Of a DNA stretch of 64,000 nucleotides, positions 23,873-29,646 are shown piece after piece. How positions within the stretch are numbered: position 1 is the first letter of the stretch; every line of letters begins with the position of its first letter. Position numbers and translations under genes: made by a program. Origin of the DNA: an uncultured Rickettsiales bacterium (lineage in GTDB: Bacteria > Pseudomonadota > Alphaproteobacteria > Rickettsiales > JALZUV01); contig CAZZJS010000005.1 of NCBI GenBank assembly GCA_964654855.1, positions 68,081-132,080 of the forward strand, given 5' to 3'. The notes under the pieces were generated by a model. It was not told the DNA's origin, ran no database searches, and worked only from the letters and a program-made list of their open reading frames with translations.

Positions 23873-23958
23873 CGAGCCAGTAGGGCGAGTCAGCCATAAG
23901 CAAGCGAAGCGTCGCCTATCGCGAAGTTAGTAGACCGAGCAGGGGCAATTAAAAACTA
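23873..23958. repeat. Possible short dispersed repeat element between convergent ruvC and valS
   Basis: GC-rich spacer with GCGAG/GCAAGCGAAGCG/GCGAAG units and no T-tailed terminator; single copy in this window, so repeat status is unverified. Confidence 0.25.
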
Positions 23959-26427
23959 AGCCGCGTCGCTTTCTTCTGCAAATTCGAGTGACAAGCTGAA
24001 ATTCTCATCCTCGGTTTTGATGTCACCTTCGCCATGGGTGATGCTGGCGATATTACCGGCACCGGCGAGATCGGCTTTAGCGGAGTCGCTCAACTCTGCT
24101 GAAATCTTCGCTTCCGTAATTGGCCATTTGATCGAGACGCCTTTTTCTGACTTTGCCTTGCGTACCGCTTCTAGCAATTCGACTACGGCAATACCTTCTG
24201 TTTCAGCCGCTTCATCCACCAGATAGTCGGATGCTTTTGGCCAGTTACCACGCGCGTGGATAGAGCCGATAACTTCGGCTTTGCTATCAAAAATATGGCT
24301 CCAAAGCTCCTCAGTCACATGCGGCACAATCGGTGCGAAGAGGCGCAGGATACCATCTAAACAATGATAAATGGTATAAACGGCACTCATCTGGCCTTGC
24401 CTATCTTCGCCTGCTTCGTCATAAGCGCGCTTTTTGACCAGCTCTAAATAATTATCGCAAAAGTCATTCCAGAAAAAATCTTCAATTGCGCGCAACGCAC
24501 TCGCATATTCATAGGCTTCAAATTCTTGCGTTGCTTTTGTTGTGGCGCGGTGCAGACGCGAAAGAATCCATTTATCGAGCGTTGCGGTTACTTCATCCGG
24601 TTCGCCATCGAGTTTCTCTAAGTGAATGGCGGCGAATTTTGTCGCATTCCAAAGCTTATTAACCAGCTTCTTCCCAATTTTCAATAGATCGCGAGAGAAG
24701 GCGGTATCTTGCCCTAATTTTGAAGTGGATGCCCAATAGCGCACCACGTCAGAGCCATGCTCCTCAATCAGTGCGATTGGGGTCACGACATTGCCTTTGG
24801 ATTTACTCATTTTGGTTTTATCTTCTGCCAAGCACCAGCCGGAGATCATCAGGTTTTTCCACGGAATGGTATCGCCGTGAAGGTGAGACTTCACGATGGT
24901 ATAGAATGCCCATGTACGAATAATTTCATGCGCTTGCGGGCGCATATCAGCAGGGAATAATTTATTATGACGCTCTGCATCAATGGCGAGTTCCGGCGTA
25001 ATGGCTTTACTGCTAAGCTGTGGTGAAACGGAAGAGGTCGCCCAAGTATCCATCACGTCCACATCGGCATCGACTTCGTCACGGCTATAGCCTTCAGGTA
25101 AATCAACGAGTGGGTTACAGGGTAGTTGATCGGGCGATGCGATAAGCACCTTACCTTCTTCCCCCGCACGTTTGGAATACCAAATAGGAAACGGAACGCC
25201 GAAATAGCGTTGGCGTGAGATGCACCAATCCCAGCTTAGGCCATCGATCCATTGATCCATGCGTTTGCTCATCCATTCGGGATGCCAATTACATTCGGCT
25301 GATTTGGCTTTGAGGGCTTCCTTTTTATCCATCACGCTAACAAACCATTGTGGTGTTGGTAGAATTTCCAATGGAGCACCGGAGCGCTCTGCACATTTTA
25401 CGGCATGGGTAATGGGTTTTGATTCGACTAAGTCGCCCGAAGCTTCCAGTTGTTTGATAATTTCTTCGCGTGCCATTTTGGCTTTCTTATTCGCCATCCA
25501 TTCCGGCGCGCCTTCGAAATCAATTTTCCCGTATTTATTGAGGATCAGTTTGAGCTCTAACCCATGTTTACGCCATTTCTCGATATCGGCTTCGTCACCA
25601 AAGGTACAGCACATCATAATGCCGGTTCCTTTATCAATTTCGACCGAGTCATCTTCCAAAATAGGAACTTTTACACCGAAAAGGGGAGTGATAGCGGTTT
25701 TGCCTTTGAGGTGCTGATAGCGTTCATCTTCAGGGTGGTAAAATACGCCGACACAAGCGGGGATAAGCTCTGGACGCGTGGTAGCGATGACGAGTTTCTC
25801 ATCAGAACCTTCAACACCAAAATGAATATCATTAAAATGCGATGGCAGCTCTTTATCTTCCACCTCGGCTTGAGCGATGGCGGTTTGGTCAACGGGATCC
25901 CATAGCATCGGCTCTAATTTGCGCGTGACATGGCCTTTTTGGAAAAGGTCGAGGAAGCTAAGTTGCGACATTTTGCGGCTATCTTCCGACACCGTATGGT
26001 ATTCCTGATTCCAATCCACCGAGAGAGCAGTTGATTGGAATAATGCGCGGTAGGCTTTGCGTGATTCATCGGAGACTTCCATACAATCTTCAATAAATTC
26101 TTCGCGGCTATCATATCTAGAAGCCGTTTTCTTTTTCGCCTTTTCGACAAGGCGTTCGGTGGGCAGGCCGTTATCGTCAAACCCCATCGGATAGAATACC
26201 GTCTTGCCATTCATGCGCTGCCAGCGGGCGACAAAGTCGGCTTGCGTATAGCTGAATACATGCCCCATATGCAGATGTCCGGAGACGGTGGGTGGAGGCG
26301 TATCGATCACAAAGGTTTCATCGCGCGGGGCGCTTTCATCCCAGTGATAGGTGCCTGCTTTTAGCCAATGATCCTGCCAGCGTTTCTCGGTCGCGGCGGT
26401 CTCGTATTTCTTCGGTAATTCTTTCAT
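23956..26427 (-). CDS. valS: Valine-tRNA ligase, short archaeal-type form
   Basis: IDTPPPTVSG, HMGH, WCISRQRYFG, PQAHEIIRTW, KMSKS; 823 aa without the long C-terminal coiled coil. Confidence 0.95.
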   Translation of the reverse strand: MKELPKKYETAATEKRWQDHWLKAGTYHWDESAPRDETFVIDTPPPTVSGHLHMGHVFSYTQADFVARWQRMNGKTVFYPMGFDDNGLPTERLVEKAKKKTASRYDSREEFIEDCMEVSDESRKAYRALFQSTALSVDWNQEYHTVSEDSRKMSQLSFLDLFQKGHVTRKLEPMLWDPVDQTAIAQAEVEDKELPSHFNDIHFGVEGSDEKLVIATTRPELIPACVGVFYHPEDERYQHLKGKTAITPLFGVKVPILEDDSVEIDKGTGIMMCCTFGDEADIEKWRKHGLELKLILNKYGKIDFEGAPEWMANKKAKMAREEIIKQLEASGDLVESKPITHAVKCAERSGAPLEILPTPQWFVSVMDKKEALKAKSAECNWHPEWMSKRMDQWIDGLSWDWCISRQRYFGVPFPIWYSKRAGEEGKVLIASPDQLPCNPLVDLPEGYSRDEVDADVDVMDTWATSSVSPQLSSKAITPELAIDAERHNKLFPADMRPQAHEIIRTWAFYTIVKSHLHGDTIPWKNLMISGWCLAEDKTKMSKSKGNVVTPIALIEEHGSDVVRYWASTSKLGQDTAFSRDLLKIGKKLVNKLWNATKFAAIHLEKLDGEPDEVTATLDKWILSRLHRATTKATQEFEAYEYASALRAIEDFFWNDFCDNYLELVKKRAYDEAGEDRQGQMSAVYTIYHCLDGILRLFAPIVPHVTEELWSHIFDSKAEVIGSIHARGNWPKASDYLVDEAAETEGIAVVELLEAVRKAKSEKGVSIKWPITEAKISAELSDSAKADLAGAGNIASITHGEGDIKTEDENFSLSLEFAEESDAA

Positions 26428-26579
26428 TCCGCAGGGATAGCCTGACTGCGCATAAGGTGCAAGTATCCATGAAATAAAAAAGCTGTAATGAAACTGAAAA
26501 GACTGACGAATGATTATTTATAACTGAAAAATATTCCTGAAAAATCAGTTTATCATTTATTAACAAGGAGACTCTCAAA

Positions 26580-26786
26580 ATGAAAAAGAAATCAGTTAAG
26601 AAAACATCTATCGCACTTGCTTCAATGCTAACTGCTGCAGGCACAATCGCGGCAGCCCCAGCAGCATTTGCTGTGCCTTCACAACCAACGTCTATTCATG
26701 CTTGCGGTGGTTGTTATGGTTGTCGAGGTCATAAAGGTGATGATCGCCATGGTTGCCATGGCTGTGGTGGATGTCGCGGTTACTAA
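26580..26786 (+). CDS. Secreted Cys/Gly/His-rich small peptide (candidate RiPP precursor or metal-binding peptide)
   Basis: Strong RBS AAGGAG; Sec-type signal MKKKSVKK..PAAFA; two CxxCxxC repeats HACGGCYGCRGH and HGCHGCGGCRGY. Confidence 0.8.
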   Translation: MKKKSVKKTSIALASMLTAAGTIAAAPAAFAVPSQPTSIHACGGCYGCRGHKGDDRHGCHGCGGCRGY

Positions 26787-26811
26787 ACTTTAAGTTCAAC
26801 ATCACATAGGA

Positions 26812-26839
26812 GGGGAGGTGAAAGCCTCCCCAACTTTTT
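26812..26839 (+). terminator. GC-rich hairpin between the peptide gene and the downstream gene (partial terminator or stabiliser)
   Basis: GGGGAGGT-GAAA-GCCTCCCC followed by AACTTTTT, directly before ATG 26840. Confidence 0.65.
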
Positions 26840-27541
26840 ATGAGTTTTAGCCTTCCAATTTTAAGTGATTATAAACGTGAGAAACTAACGGCATGCGCGA
26901 TGCGTTTATTAGAATCACAGCAACAACTTCATGCCGAACATCAAGGTTTGCATGCCTTTATGTTGGCCAATTCGCTGCATGAAGATGAGGAGCCGTTTAC
27001 GGCAATGCGCCATTACCCAAAGGGTGACCGCATTGATTATGAAAGCGGTGGGCAGTATTTTTACCATTGTCATCGCGAAAATTTTGAAACGGAAGAGCAT
27101 GGGCATTTTCATGTTTTTATTCGCGCAAGTGGATGGCCGAAGAGCTACCGTTTGCCTGCTATTCCTGAACGCGATAAATATAGCGATAACCCGATGACCC
27201 ATGTCATTAGCATCGGACTTAATCGTCATGGACAACCGATTCGTTTATTTACGGTGAATCGTTGGGTTAGTCAGGAATGCTGGTTTGAAGCAGAGCGTTT
27301 GAGGCGGATGAGTCAAAAATTCTCCTTGAATGTGCAAAAGAATGAACAATGGAAGCTGCTTGATGATTGGATAGAAAATTTGGTGCATTTATTCATGCCG
27401 CAAACTTTATGGTTGCAGCAGCAGCGTGATGAGATGGTCAAAGATATTGTTTCGGCGGACCCTTATCATGATACAGATTTTGAAGAATTATCCTCGCTTT
27501 CTATCAATCTAGAGCAACAAATTCAGTGGTTGATGCAATAG
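26840..27541 (+). CDS. Protein of unknown function with clustered His motifs (DUF6969-like)
   Basis: HYPKGD, QYFYHCHR, EEHGHFHVFIR, THVISI, PIRLFTVNRWV; family name recalled, not searched; no signal peptide. Confidence 0.7.
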   Translation: MSFSLPILSDYKREKLTACAMRLLESQQQLHAEHQGLHAFMLANSLHEDEEPFTAMRHYPKGDRIDYESGGQYFYHCHRENFETEEHGHFHVFIRASGWPKSYRLPAIPERDKYSDNPMTHVISIGLNRHGQPIRLFTVNRWVSQECWFEAERLRRMSQKFSLNVQKNEQWKLLDDWIENLVHLFMPQTLWLQQQRDEMVKDIVSADPYHDTDFEELSSLSINLEQQIQWLMQ

Positions 27542-27590
27542 ACGGTAGACAAATCCAAATTCTATGCTAATAAAGCGCTTCCAATTTTGT

Positions 27591-27675
27591 GCGGATGTGG
27601 TGGAATTGGTAGACACGCTAGATTTAGGTTCTAGTGCCGCGAGGCGTGAAGGTTCAAGTCCTTTCATCCGTACCA
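27591..27675 (+). tRNA. tRNA-Leu(TAG)
   Basis: GCGGATG/CATCCGT acceptor stem, D arm TGGAATTGGTAGAC, anticodon arm CTAGA-TTTAGGT-TCTAG, long variable arm, GGTTCAAGTCC, encoded CCA. Confidence 0.97.
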
Positions 27676-27699: not shown

Positions 27700-29646
27700 C
27701 TAGCCGTCTGCAGAGCCGGTGCTCTCATTGATAAGCTCTAATAGAATATCAGATTGCAGTTGGTTCGTTTGAGCCGCTACAGAAATTGCCGCATTATTTT
27801 GAACTTGCAAACTTGCAAATTCAGTTGAAGTTGCAAGGATATCTGTATCCGTTAAAGCGGAATGGGCATTGGTTTGATTTTGTACTAATTGGGCGGCGTT
27901 ATTAGCGATATAATCAGAACGTTGTGCAAGCGACCCTACATAAGCTCGCATGCTAGTCACTGCATTAATTGCTTTATCTATTTCTGTAGAAGCCAGCTCG
28001 GCTTCTTTGCGGGTGCCTAAAATTATATCGCCCGGATCGTCGAAGAGTGAATCGAGTGTTGCATCAACAAAAGTATATTCCAATACTTCAGAGCCGACGC
28101 CAGAAATATCAAAAGTAAGTTGCTCTGGGCCACCTATCGAGCTGCCAATGACTAAACCACCATCATTAAATTGCAATAGCTCTACATTGCTTAATATGTC
28201 GGTTCCGTTCGGGCTGCCGACGCGAGTATCGGTGATGATGTAATCGCCATTAAAATCTTGCTCGATGCTGTAATCTGAAAAATTACCACTATAAGTGACT
28301 GTATCTGTACCTAAACCACCATCAATTGTATCATTGCCATCAAGGCCACCAGAGGCTCCTCCAGGTTGACCAATTGCCGCGGTAATTTGTGCCACTTCTG
28401 CAGCATCAAGTGCATCATTATATAAAGCAAAATCACCAATTTGACCTTTGAAGAAGTCATTAATCGCATTAGTGTTATCAGCGCCGAGTTCGTTATAGCC
28501 TCTTCCCCCGGATGCTCCAAAGGTAATGTCACCTGTATGTCTCGCTTGTGGTTGGTTTACAACTCCCACTCCAATGACGGCCCCATCCAGATAAGCGGTA
28601 AAAGTATTAGCGGTCGAATCAAATACAAAACCTGCGGTGTAGGTAGTGAAAGTGGAAATAGGCACTGAAAGGAAATGATCAAAGTCAGCCCCGTTATTTC
28701 TCCATGCCCCTACATAAAGATTATTATTGTTAATATGAAAGCTGAAGCCATTTACTTGTGCGCCCTCTTCATAAATATACTGCCTGTTGGAAATGTCATC
28801 GCTAGTGGTAAAGTTCAAAAATATGCTGCGTAAAGGATGTATTACATCATTGATATCACCAGTATTATTGACGTTTAGATGGTCATTTATTCCATCAAAG
28901 TCGAGAACGTTACTTCCGCCCTGTGCGATGAGGCGAGGTTGAGAGGATGCTACATTTTGAAAAGCAGTATTACCATTCCCGCTAGTGTCATTGATCGACT
29001 GCACAGCACCACCGTTCAATGTTAAGCTGGAAGCGTCATTGGCTGCGATAACTACCGCTGCGCCTGGAGGTATGGGGACCGTACCATCGCTACCAGCATT
29101 AATGATATCATCACCTGCACCAGCAAGCACAAGATCGTTGCCACCAAAGGCATTAATGGTCTCACCTATTTCGCTTCCTAATACGGTTTCGCCTGCATTT
29201 GTACCAAGGATGGTTTGCGTTATCCCTTCATAGCGATAGCCATTTAGTACTTGGGTGCCATTAAAGTTGGTGGTTTCTGCTAATCGGTCAATTTCTTTTT
29301 TGAGTGCTTGAAGCTCAATATCCAGATAGCCGCGCTCAGTTTGCGTTATGCCATCACTACTTGCTTGAACGGAGAGCGATTTCATACGTAACAACAGTTC
29401 TTGAACATTAGAAAGTCCACTATCAGCAACTTGAAAAAGGCTGATAGCCTGTGTGACATTGGATTGTACTGCACGCGTCGATTCAATATGGTTTCTAAGC
29501 GTAGAGGCAACAGACAGGCTCGCTGTATCAACTTGCGCGCTGGTGAGTCGGTTGCCCGATGCAAGTTGATCAATTGTCGTTTCAATTTTCTTACGCAAAC
29601 GCGAGGTCGAAACATTCAAACGATTATTTAGCGACGTTAAATCCAA
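27700..29646 (-). CDS. Atypical flagellin with RTX-like repeats and a LamG/concanavalin-like insert
   Basis: Flagellin N (LASGNRL, QVADSGL, EIDRLAETTNFNG) and C (RAYVGSLAQR, DTDILATST, AAQTN) domains around GGND/GAGDD/DGNDTIDGGLG repeats and a FDGINDHL..YLDG..GQIGDFALYN domain; TTG start. Confidence 0.85.
   Translation of the reverse strand: MDLTSLNNRLNVSTSRLRKKIETTIDQLASGNRLTSAQVDTASLSVASTLRNHIESTRAVQSNVTQAISLFQVADSGLSNVQELLLRMKSLSVQASSDGITQTERGYLDIELQALKKEIDRLAETTNFNGTQVLNGYRYEGITQTILGTNAGETVLGSEIGETINAFGGNDLVLAGAGDDIINAGSDGTVPIPPGAAVVIAANDASSLTLNGGAVQSINDTSGNGNTAFQNVASSQPRLIAQGGSNVLDFDGINDHLNVNNTGDINDVIHPLRSIFLNFTTSDDISNRQYIYEEGAQVNGFSFHINNNNLYVGAWRNNGADFDHFLSVPISTFTTYTAGFVFDSTANTFTAYLDGAVIGVGVVNQPQARHTGDITFGASGGRGYNELGADNTNAINDFFKGQIGDFALYNDALDAAEVAQITAAIGQPGGASGGLDGNDTIDGGLGTDTVTYSGNFSDYSIEQDFNGDYIITDTRVGSPNGTDILSNVELLQFNDGGLVIGSSIGGPEQLTFDISGVGSEVLEYTFVDATLDSLFDDPGDIILGTRKEAELASTEIDKAINAVTSMRAYVGSLAQRSDYIANNAAQLVQNQTNAHSALTDTDILATSTEFASLQVQNNAAISVAAQTNQLQSDILLELINESTGSADG

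Follow-up and report, generated by a model that had tools for sequence, protein, structure and literature searches.

The 64,000-nucleotide (nt) stretch of DNA analysed here (the window; forward-strand positions 68,081 to 132,080 of contig CAZZJS010000005.1, from an uncultured Rickettsiales bacterium) carries two adjacent genes, about 0.9 kb in total, that encode a short Cys-rich peptide with a predicted signal peptide and a His-rich protein of the DUF6969 family. We propose, at a probability of roughly 0.45, that the two genes form a horizontally acquired module for an exported metallothionein-like peptide, on whose Cys core a metal-dependent DUF6969 protein would act in the cytoplasm. The anatomy of the two genes, their pairing, the joint loss of Cys repeats and DUF6969, a conserved hairpin between the genes and a conserved set of His and Glu residues are established here. 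The initial annotation of the locus had suggested a candidate new peptide system, a reading that is partly borne out: the pair is conserved, and what could be taken for a lone oddity belongs to a widespread module, of which it is a divergent member gained by horizontal transfer. The elements of the pair are as follows.

26565..26570, plus strand: Shine-Dalgarno-like AAGGAG, read from the sequence, 9 nt 5' of the peptide ATG.
26580..26786, plus strand: precursor peptide gene, 68 amino acids (aa), from the open reading frame (ORF) call; homologs P0001 and L026:273-467.
26673..26783, plus strand: predicted mature core, 37 aa (residues 32-68), from composition and a cut by the -3/-1 rule.
26812..26839, plus strand: terminator-like hairpin (8 pairs, 6 of them G-C, loop of 4) and T-run, ending at the DUF6969 start codon.
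26840..27541, plus strand: DUF6969 protein, 233 aa, from a match to Pfam PF22308.
Within DUF6969, plus strand: candidate metal ligands H76, H78, E86, H89, H91 and H121, from conservation.

The 68-aa precursor product is MKKKSVKKTSIALASMLTAAGTIAAAPAAFAVPSQPTSIHACGGCYGCRGHKGDDRHGCHGCGGCRGY. Its predicted signal peptide, residues 1-31, begins with a Lys-rich n-region, continues through a hydrophobic stretch and closes with A-F-A ahead of V32. The cut site, judged by eye with the -3/-1 rule, aligns with the AYA or AFA site of 28 homologs, and both signal peptide and cut site are conserved through the 29 aligned peptide sequences. The mature core of 37 aa displays six Cys in overlapping CxxC spacing, four His and ten Gly. 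This recomputed composition is the one initially reported, and the strong ribosome-binding site and Sec-type leader cut at AFA/V that had been described for the 68-aa ORF are all present in the sequence. Cys-dense frames of this kind are rare in the window: 6 of its 681 stop-to-stop frames of at least 40 aa contain at least six Cys within 28 aa, and only 26580-26786 opens with a signal-peptide-like sequence. A peptide-family profile (A3), built from the alignment of the window peptide with its 28 homologs, finds a single match in the window's genome, the window peptide itself (E 2.7e-22). In searches of established families the window peptide reaches no Pfam cut-off, leaving DUF2282 unmatched, and nothing in NCBIfam matches it at E <= 1. 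In addition to Cys, both His and Glu are found in the cores of the window peptide and of the peptide at the most closely related locus, L026. Judged by conservation, which excludes a chance frame, 26580-26786 is a genuine gene for a predicted Sec-type precursor. A tandem 13-nt repeat (TATAACTGAAAAA / TATTCCTGAAAAA), a possible operator, lies at 26519-26544, 36-61 nt 5' of the peptide ATG.

Two other readings of the repeats were considered and set aside. Attachment of c-type heme was suggested by a CxxCH motif in the P0001 and L026 peptides, and the motif is missing from the window peptide and from the CKGC-type peptides. A collagen-like reading of (Gly-Cys-Lys)n came from Pfam Collagen matches in 10 of the 29 peptides (best E 1.2e-7), which are taken as an artefact of periodicity.

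The downstream gene starts 53 nt 3' of the peptide ORF, on the same strand. Its 233-aa product had been called DUF6969-like, and the hidden Markov model search suggested at the time places it firmly in that family (PF22308, E 3.6e-56, 190.4 bits against a cut-off of 27, profile positions 7-201 of 201); no NCBIfam model matches the protein. The product is predicted to be cytoplasmic, since it displays no hydrophobic N-terminus, with a maximum 15-residue hydropathy of 0.78 versus 1.78 for the peptide. Its His residues are clustered in four motifs, H58-Y59, Y73-R79, E86-H91 and T120-H121. H76, H89, H91 and H121 are invariant in all 112 DUF6969 sequences compared, while H78 and E86 are kept in 111 of the 112. 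The His residues picked out by the initial annotation coincide with the invariant positions of the family. P60, G88, F137 and N140 are likewise invariant over the 112 distinct sequences.

An AlphaFold2 model of the protein (predicted local distance difference test 95, predicted template modelling score 0.91) displays a long N-terminal helix, a single sheet of five main strands (59-65, 71-81, 86-95, 119-127 and 133-139) with flanking helices, and a helical C-terminal half. The candidate ligands sit on strands 71-81, 86-95 and 119-127. HxH on one strand, E...HxH on the following one and H on a third would form the usual arrangement of a sheet-built metal site. A cupin or thiol-dioxygenase assignment, suggested by the HxH...H pattern, would call for a double-stranded beta-helix that carries the ligands. 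It gains no support from the strand layout of the model, and the fold-search lists contain no cupin, which still leaves room for one. Foldseek of the model against the PDB gave nothing at E <= 0.001 (best E 0.35, template modelling (TM) score below 0.2). Similarly, of the 48,161 representative chains compared by VIA-align, 193 reached Z >= 2 but not one reached Z >= 5 (top Z 3.4, root-mean-square deviation 6.4 over 107 residues), and a sequence profile search of the PDB reached a best E of 0.13. The feature search of the ESM Atlas returned no usable match, and its structure search returned only the DUF6969 cluster itself (TM 0.88), the next entries lying at TM 0.28-0.32 by query. These blank searches do not prove the fold to be new. 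The family comprises 1155 representative clusters at E <= 0.001. Among nine longer members scanned for fusions, only P0277 carries another Pfam domain, the rest having unmatched N-terminal extensions; P0277 (625 aa) is a rare fusion in which DUF6969 leads, through a long coiled coil and then a membrane segment, to a C-terminal SH3 domain of bacterial type. The fusions offer no clue to function.

The pairing of the two genes is conserved well beyond the window. A metagenome scan with the DUF6969 alignment yielded 80 loci, 34 of them Legionellales-like (39-70% identity) and 46 soil-type. At L026, the closest relative, the DUF6969 protein is 70% identical and peptide, DUF6969 and tRNA-Leu follow in the same order as in the window, and a CopB gene comes next. 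In 30 of the 34 Legionellales-like loci (27 distinct peptides) the gene immediately 5' of DUF6969, on the same strand, is a homologous signal-peptide ORF with a core made of CxGC repeats, chiefly Cys-Lys-Gly-Cys. The window pair displays the same layout, its A3-homologous Cys-repeat ORF immediately preceding DUF6969 in the same orientation. Among the remaining four loci, three (L036, L042, L050) carry a coproporphyrinogen oxidase gene upstream and no peptide, and the fourth (L044) offers only 111 upstream bases. In the Legionellaceae the A3 profile matches 43 of 81 sampled genomes at E <= 1e-6. An intact DUF6969 gene lies directly downstream of the peptide in 24 of 31 Legionellaceae peptide loci; one of the others shows fragments, three end at a contig edge and three show none, so that 24 of the 28 assessable loci are paired. 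The initial annotation had named a failure of homologs to co-occur with similar peptides among the observations that would speak against a peptide system; instead, 30 of 34 and 24 of 28 loci are paired.

The four peptide homologs that lie apart from an intact DUF6969 gene have kept the signal peptide and hold 3, 3, 0 and 0 Cys, compared with a median of 10 (range 3-16) for the 49 distinct peptides that accompany DUF6969. Cys repeats and DUF6969 are thus lost jointly. At L136, peptide-like ORFs are found on either side of one DUF6969 gene (1450-1830 and 2690-2938), and each contains few Cys (3 and 4).

The neighbourhoods of the related pairs supplied 75 flanking ORFs, for which the first 25 of 54 families were listed. 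The most frequent are PHP (12), adh_short (11) and YbeY (11), which reflect housekeeping synteny. No accessory family and no known maturase family (MNIO, YcaO or radical SAM) is found among the 75 flanking ORFs in the matches listed, and no MNIO, YcaO or radical-SAM ORF is present in the window between 23000 and 31000. The absence of such a gene beside the pair, already remarked in the initial annotation, therefore extends to the related loci. A CopB gene adjoins the pair in L026 and a DsbD gene in L108. Near the pair in four loci lies a secreted ORF of 104-111 aa, rich in Tyr, His and Arg and ending in a C-terminal Cys cluster.

L037:4550-4864, L038, L041:4743-5078 and L109:2764-3096, opposite strand: Tyr/His/Arg-rich secreted ORF, no Pfam match.

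A hairpin separates the two genes. Its stem-loop (26812-26831) ends 8 nt before the DUF6969 ATG and is followed by AACTTTTTAT, a G+C-rich stem and T-run that fit the pattern of an intrinsic terminator or attenuator. The hairpin has a centroid energy of -17 kcal/mol, and z is -3.24 for the 62-nt spacer. A simple rule detects a hairpin with T-run at this position in 35 of the 53 distinct pairs, whereas 40 shuffles gave 1.4 on average and never more than 4; stems of at least 10 occur in 26 of the 53, against a shuffle mean of 0.0. Since the sequences of the hairpins vary among loci, it is the structure and not the sequence that is kept. Such a hairpin would yield much peptide mRNA and little DUF6969 mRNA, a ratio that suits a product and its catalyst or handler.

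The DUF6969 tree places the window protein with the peptide-linked members. In an IQ-TREE analysis of 60 rows the peptide-linked DUF6969 proteins form one clade of 45 rows (Shimodaira-Hasegawa-like approximate likelihood ratio test support 99), in which the window protein pairs with L026 (support 100). Seven peptide-less Legionella paralogs form one group (support 96) nested within this clade, which argues that they are a later duplicate. FastTree on all 112 rows concurs with this grouping. DUF6969 is present in one of 41 genomes of the window's relatives, namely the window's own, and in 12 of 401 genomes sampled over the phylum. For the window's RuvC the named relatives (51-57% identity) belong to the Alphaproteobacteria, whereas those of its DUF6969 are Legionella, Fluoribacter and Legionellales, a contrast that fits transfer between classes. 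On these sequence comparisons, the window pair is a horizontally acquired member of a widespread module that is mobile across classes.

Comparison of the window's genome with same-genus genomes (G001, G002 and G003) delimits the transferred segment and its surroundings.

23956..26427, minus strand: valS, left neighbour, 823 aa, divergent, from the ORF call; conserved in G001-G003.
26451..27544, no strand assigned: inserted module, an extra segment relative to two same-genus genomes, from genome comparison and junction alignment.
27591..27675, plus strand: tRNA-Leu (anticodon TAG), right neighbour, from ARAGORN; the same gene follows the pair in L026.

The ORF call and ARAGORN agree with the position initially given for the pair, between divergent valS and tRNA-Leu; the valS label rests on a reading of the sequence and not on a profile. 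In G002, DNA matching window positions 25600-26450 is followed by 38 bp and then by DNA matching 27545 onward, and G003 shows the same valS/tRNA-Leu junction with a gap of 48 bp. Because DNA from the valS side joins DNA from the tRNA-Leu side in both genomes, 26451-27544 is the extra segment. The peptide and DUF6969 genes are thus a unit of inheritance of about 1.1 kb that was inserted in the window's genome. Direct repeats bordering the insertion were searched for and none was found. With three of the four genus genomes differing there, the valS/tRNA-Leu site looks like an insertion hot spot. In G001 the gap is filled by a different, membrane-protein-like ORF of 293 aa (L009:566-1447). A 138-aa ORF matching DUF2282 (L008:764-1177, E 4.7e-22) lies in G003 a few hundred bases from the tRNA-Leu/valS junction. 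Beyond tRNA-Leu the window carries a flagellin of 648 aa (27703-29646, minus strand) with Flagellin_N and Flagellin_C domains and a concanavalin/LamG-like insert in mid-protein. Elsewhere in the genome, at about 28-63 kb of contig C3, a cluster of several small His- and Cys-rich ORFs (104, 110 and 127 aa), secreted or lipoprotein-like, may form a metal-related island.

The pair probably handles metals outside the cell. In the proposed mechanism the DUF6969 protein would carry a mono- or dinuclear metal site to which three strands of a single sheet, as placed by the model, contribute five His and one Glu. It would meet the precursor in the cytoplasm and act on the Cys-rich core, either by a metal-dependent modification of Cys or by keeping the core metal-free or metal-loaded for export. 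The precursor would then be exported by Sec and cut by signal peptidase, leaving a short, unstructured mature peptide of overlapping CxxC units that may bind soft metals (Cu, Zn, Ni), whether within the periplasm or beyond it. From the features described above we infer metal binding, a direct action of DUF6969 on the peptide and its chemical modification. The relation of a product to its catalyst or handler is favoured because the exported core is metallothionein-like, the cytoplasmic partner has a putative metal site and the hairpin would set a fitting ratio. A bolder form of this proposal is possible although doubtful: DUF6969 would be the first of a new metal-dependent enzyme family, whose fold matches no solved structure and which modifies the Cys residues of low-complexity repeat peptides exported by Sec. 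It would then provide a second, MNIO-independent route to ribosomal metal-binding peptides, widespread in Legionellales and horizontally passed to other host-associated bacteria, this alphaproteobacterium among them.

Several observations weigh against the proposal that DUF6969 acts on an exported metal-binding peptide. Between 26380 and 27720 no sigma-70-like promoter is found for either gene, and no Shine-Dalgarno sequence lies directly ahead of the DUF6969 ATG (26806-26840), the only GGAGG nearby being located about 28 nt upstream, within the hairpin's 5' arm. If that hairpin terminates transcription completely, the genes would be two separate transcription units. Metal-related neighbours are rare, with one CopB and one DsbD among the 75 flanking ORFs. 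The loci compared are related and partly redundant, so that the counts of pairs are not independent events. A Legionella paralog stands beside hemF with no Cys-rich peptide, and among the 46 soil-type loci an adjacent Cys-rich ORF is present in only two (L092 and L104), four of the 46 having fewer than 300 upstream bases. Some distant clades, moreover, have neighbours that suggest sulfur metabolism (rhodanese, sulphur transport and SoxA/TsdA-like cytochrome c). Prediction of the DUF6969-peptide complex gave a median score of 0.38, and one control reached 0.71, so that it speaks neither for binding nor against it.

A rather unlikely alternative is that the two products are co-inherited and never touch. 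The peptide would then be an unmodified exported metal sponge and DUF6969 an independent cytoplasmic metalloenzyme or metal-binding protein serving under the same stress, the genes being neighbours only for co-regulation or co-transfer. The terminator-like hairpin that parts the genes and the lack of accessory genes nearby of the type that accompanies ribosomally synthesised and post-translationally modified peptides would both suit such independence. So would the members of the family that have no adjacent peptide, most soil-type genes and the Legionella paralog, in which the same invariant residues are kept; because of them, the DUF6969 family is not bound to an adjacent peptide gene and its chemistry need not involve one. 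Other observations favour a functional pair. Five named Legionella and Fluoribacter loci (L001-L005) have no peptide alongside, but two of these Legionella genomes hold a second DUF6969 gene, and the peptide gene adjoins this second copy only (L108, L109). The tight two-gene unit is retained over many genomic contexts, the Cys repeats vanish exactly where DUF6969 does, and elsewhere in the family unrelated Cys-repeat ORFs are repeatedly linked to DUF6969. Of 11 further DUF6969 loci in the phylum sample, 6 adjoin an unrelated secreted Cys-repeat ORF. Asn-Pro-Cys (NPC) repeats are found beside DUF6969 in L016, L018, L024 and L025 of that sample and in the soil-type L092, lipoprotein-like CCAAEG repeats in L021 and L022, and a CGASAN-type repeat in the soil-type L104.

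The peptide-less Legionella-type paralogs usually sit just after the gene for coproporphyrinogen III oxidase, and a tie to heme synthesis or oxygen is possible for them. Four of the five named loci (L002-L005) also carry, on the opposite strand and further upstream, an ORF whose N-terminus holds a Cys cluster. The soil-type loci, the high-GC contexts of which were sampled in part, show MlaD and ABC_trans_aux upstream and DUF2336 downstream, which offer no clear functional lead.

A role in thiol or sulfur chemistry is quite improbable. The peptide would be a carrier of sulfane sulfur or a periplasmic thiol-redox buffer, and DUF6969 a metal-dependent enzyme that oxidises or transfers thiols or persulfides. 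Its support comes from L024, where an operon-like row combines DUF6969 with a rhodanese, a sulphur-transport (YeeE-type) protein and an ArsR-type regulator, from L018, where NPC repeats are fused to a SoxA/TsdA-type cytochrome c domain, and from the DsbD gene that adjoins the pair in L108. The NPC-repeat ORF of L016 has a weak Cytochrome_P460 match. Sulfur-related neighbours are, however, confined to few distant loci and are found neither beside the window pair nor among the common neighbours of the Legionellales-type loci, while the His and Glu of the window and L026 cores, and the CopB gene next to L026, suit metal binding.

An antimicrobial function, with a bacteriocin-like or heterocycloanthracin-like peptide and DUF6969 as its maturase or immunity protein, is very improbable. 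Bacteriocin operons commonly run from a precursor gene through a hairpin to an enzyme gene, an order that the pair resembles, and relatives of the peptide give weak matches to heterocycloanthracin/sonorensin (TIGR03601), all sub-threshold at 12.5-20.4 bits against a cut-off of 35. These matches reflect low-complexity composition, since they share rows with collagen-like and His-Xaa-Ser repeat families, and in NCBIfam the window peptide itself matches nothing at E <= 1. The neighbourhood lacks a cyclodehydratase, a dehydrogenase, an ABC exporter and a protease, and the predicted export is through a Sec signal peptide. Finally, it is hardly credible that the small ORF is a random frame and that the DUF6969 gene behind it stands alone: the ORF is short, of low complexity and below every family cut-off, but it follows a strong Shine-Dalgarno sequence, its signal peptide and cut site are conserved in 29 aligned sequences, and it holds the same position beside DUF6969 in dozens of loci.

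The peptide-DUF6969 pair adds to the MNIO-dependent bufferins and oxazolins (PMC12452194) a second case, unrelated to the first, in which a predicted exported Cys-repeat peptide is coupled to a His-rich putative metalloprotein of the cytoplasm. The pairing is common, given a peptide in 43 of 81 sampled Legionellaceae genomes and 1155 representative clusters of DUF6969. Should DUF6969 be a maturase, it would represent a new enzyme family and probably a new peptide chemistry. Should it be a handler or chaperone, a domain of unknown function would gain a function, with a hint of how intracellular bacteria may meet metal stress.

Among known systems, metallothioneins, bacterial and eukaryotic, are short proteins with no aromatic core and many Cys in C-x-C or C-x-x-C spacing, with Lys, Gly and Ser between them. 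The DUF6969-linked peptides are alike in all these respects, as judged by composition only. To our knowledge the known bacterial metallothioneins (SmtA/BmtA type) are cytoplasmic. In contrast to metallothioneins, the peptides described here are predicted to be exported by a signal peptide and have a dedicated partner gene, and neither the window peptide nor any of the 29 aligned peptides matches a Pfam metallothionein family. Heterocycloanthracin and sonorensin similarly combine short repeated Cys units in a small precursor, but that precursor has a leader peptide in place of a Sec signal peptide, and the adjacent cyclodehydratase or dehydrogenase is absent here; the window peptide has no match to TIGR03601. 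The copper storage proteins (Csp) are Cys-lined exported copper buffers that fold as four-helix bundles. These proteins and periplasmic copper-resistance sets such as CopB resemble the present module in the export of a Cys-rich product and in the CopB gene that adjoins the pair in L026. They differ in that the peptides here are low-complexity cores of 30-60 residues with no predicted fold, and their link to copper is that one neighbour.

The closest parallel is with bufferins and oxazolins. According to PMC12452194, these are recently recognised, Sec-exported, copper-binding ribosomal peptides, all known examples of which need MNIO enzymes; oxazolin precursors carry low-complexity Gly/Lys/Cys repeats with EGKCG motifs, and Cys is converted to thiooxazole or oxazolone-thioamide. 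As in the systems of that account, the window precursor is small and carries a Sec signal peptide in place of a leader peptide, Cys would be the functional residues within low-complexity repeats, the gene lies beside that of a cytoplasmic (putative) metalloprotein and the role would be periplasmic (PMC12452194). By sequence features alone, the precursor shares with them the Sec-type n-region and h-region, the A-F-A and the Cys residues. The partner gene here is DUF6969 and not an MNIO TIM-barrel enzyme, and DUF2063 and DoxX are absent beside the window pair and, among the matches listed, from the 75 flanking ORFs. Moreover, the window peptide has no DUF2282 match, and its repeat is CxGC, with two-residue spacing, versus EGKCG. 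The sole MNIO of the genome (PF05114) is located on another contig, C1, beside its own DUF2282 precursor. At that locus (C1:192438-193495; L106, L107) a DUF2282 ORF (E 1.2e-22) is followed by the MNIO gene (E 4.2e-107), the 535-aa open frame of which suggests a fused partner domain. In the literature library searched, neither DUF6969 nor the CKGC-repeat strings are named. The bufferin and Legionella metallothionein literature, at the level of titles and abstracts, likewise holds nothing on the peptide-DUF6969 pair. The pair would follow a logic similar to that of bufferins and oxazolins, but with the defining MNIO, DUF2063 and DoxX genes absent it probably lies outside their family. The module resembles a recently recognised class, in which a Sec-exported Cys-rich peptide has a cytoplasmic metalloprotein partner, and the pairing with DUF6969 itself appears new.

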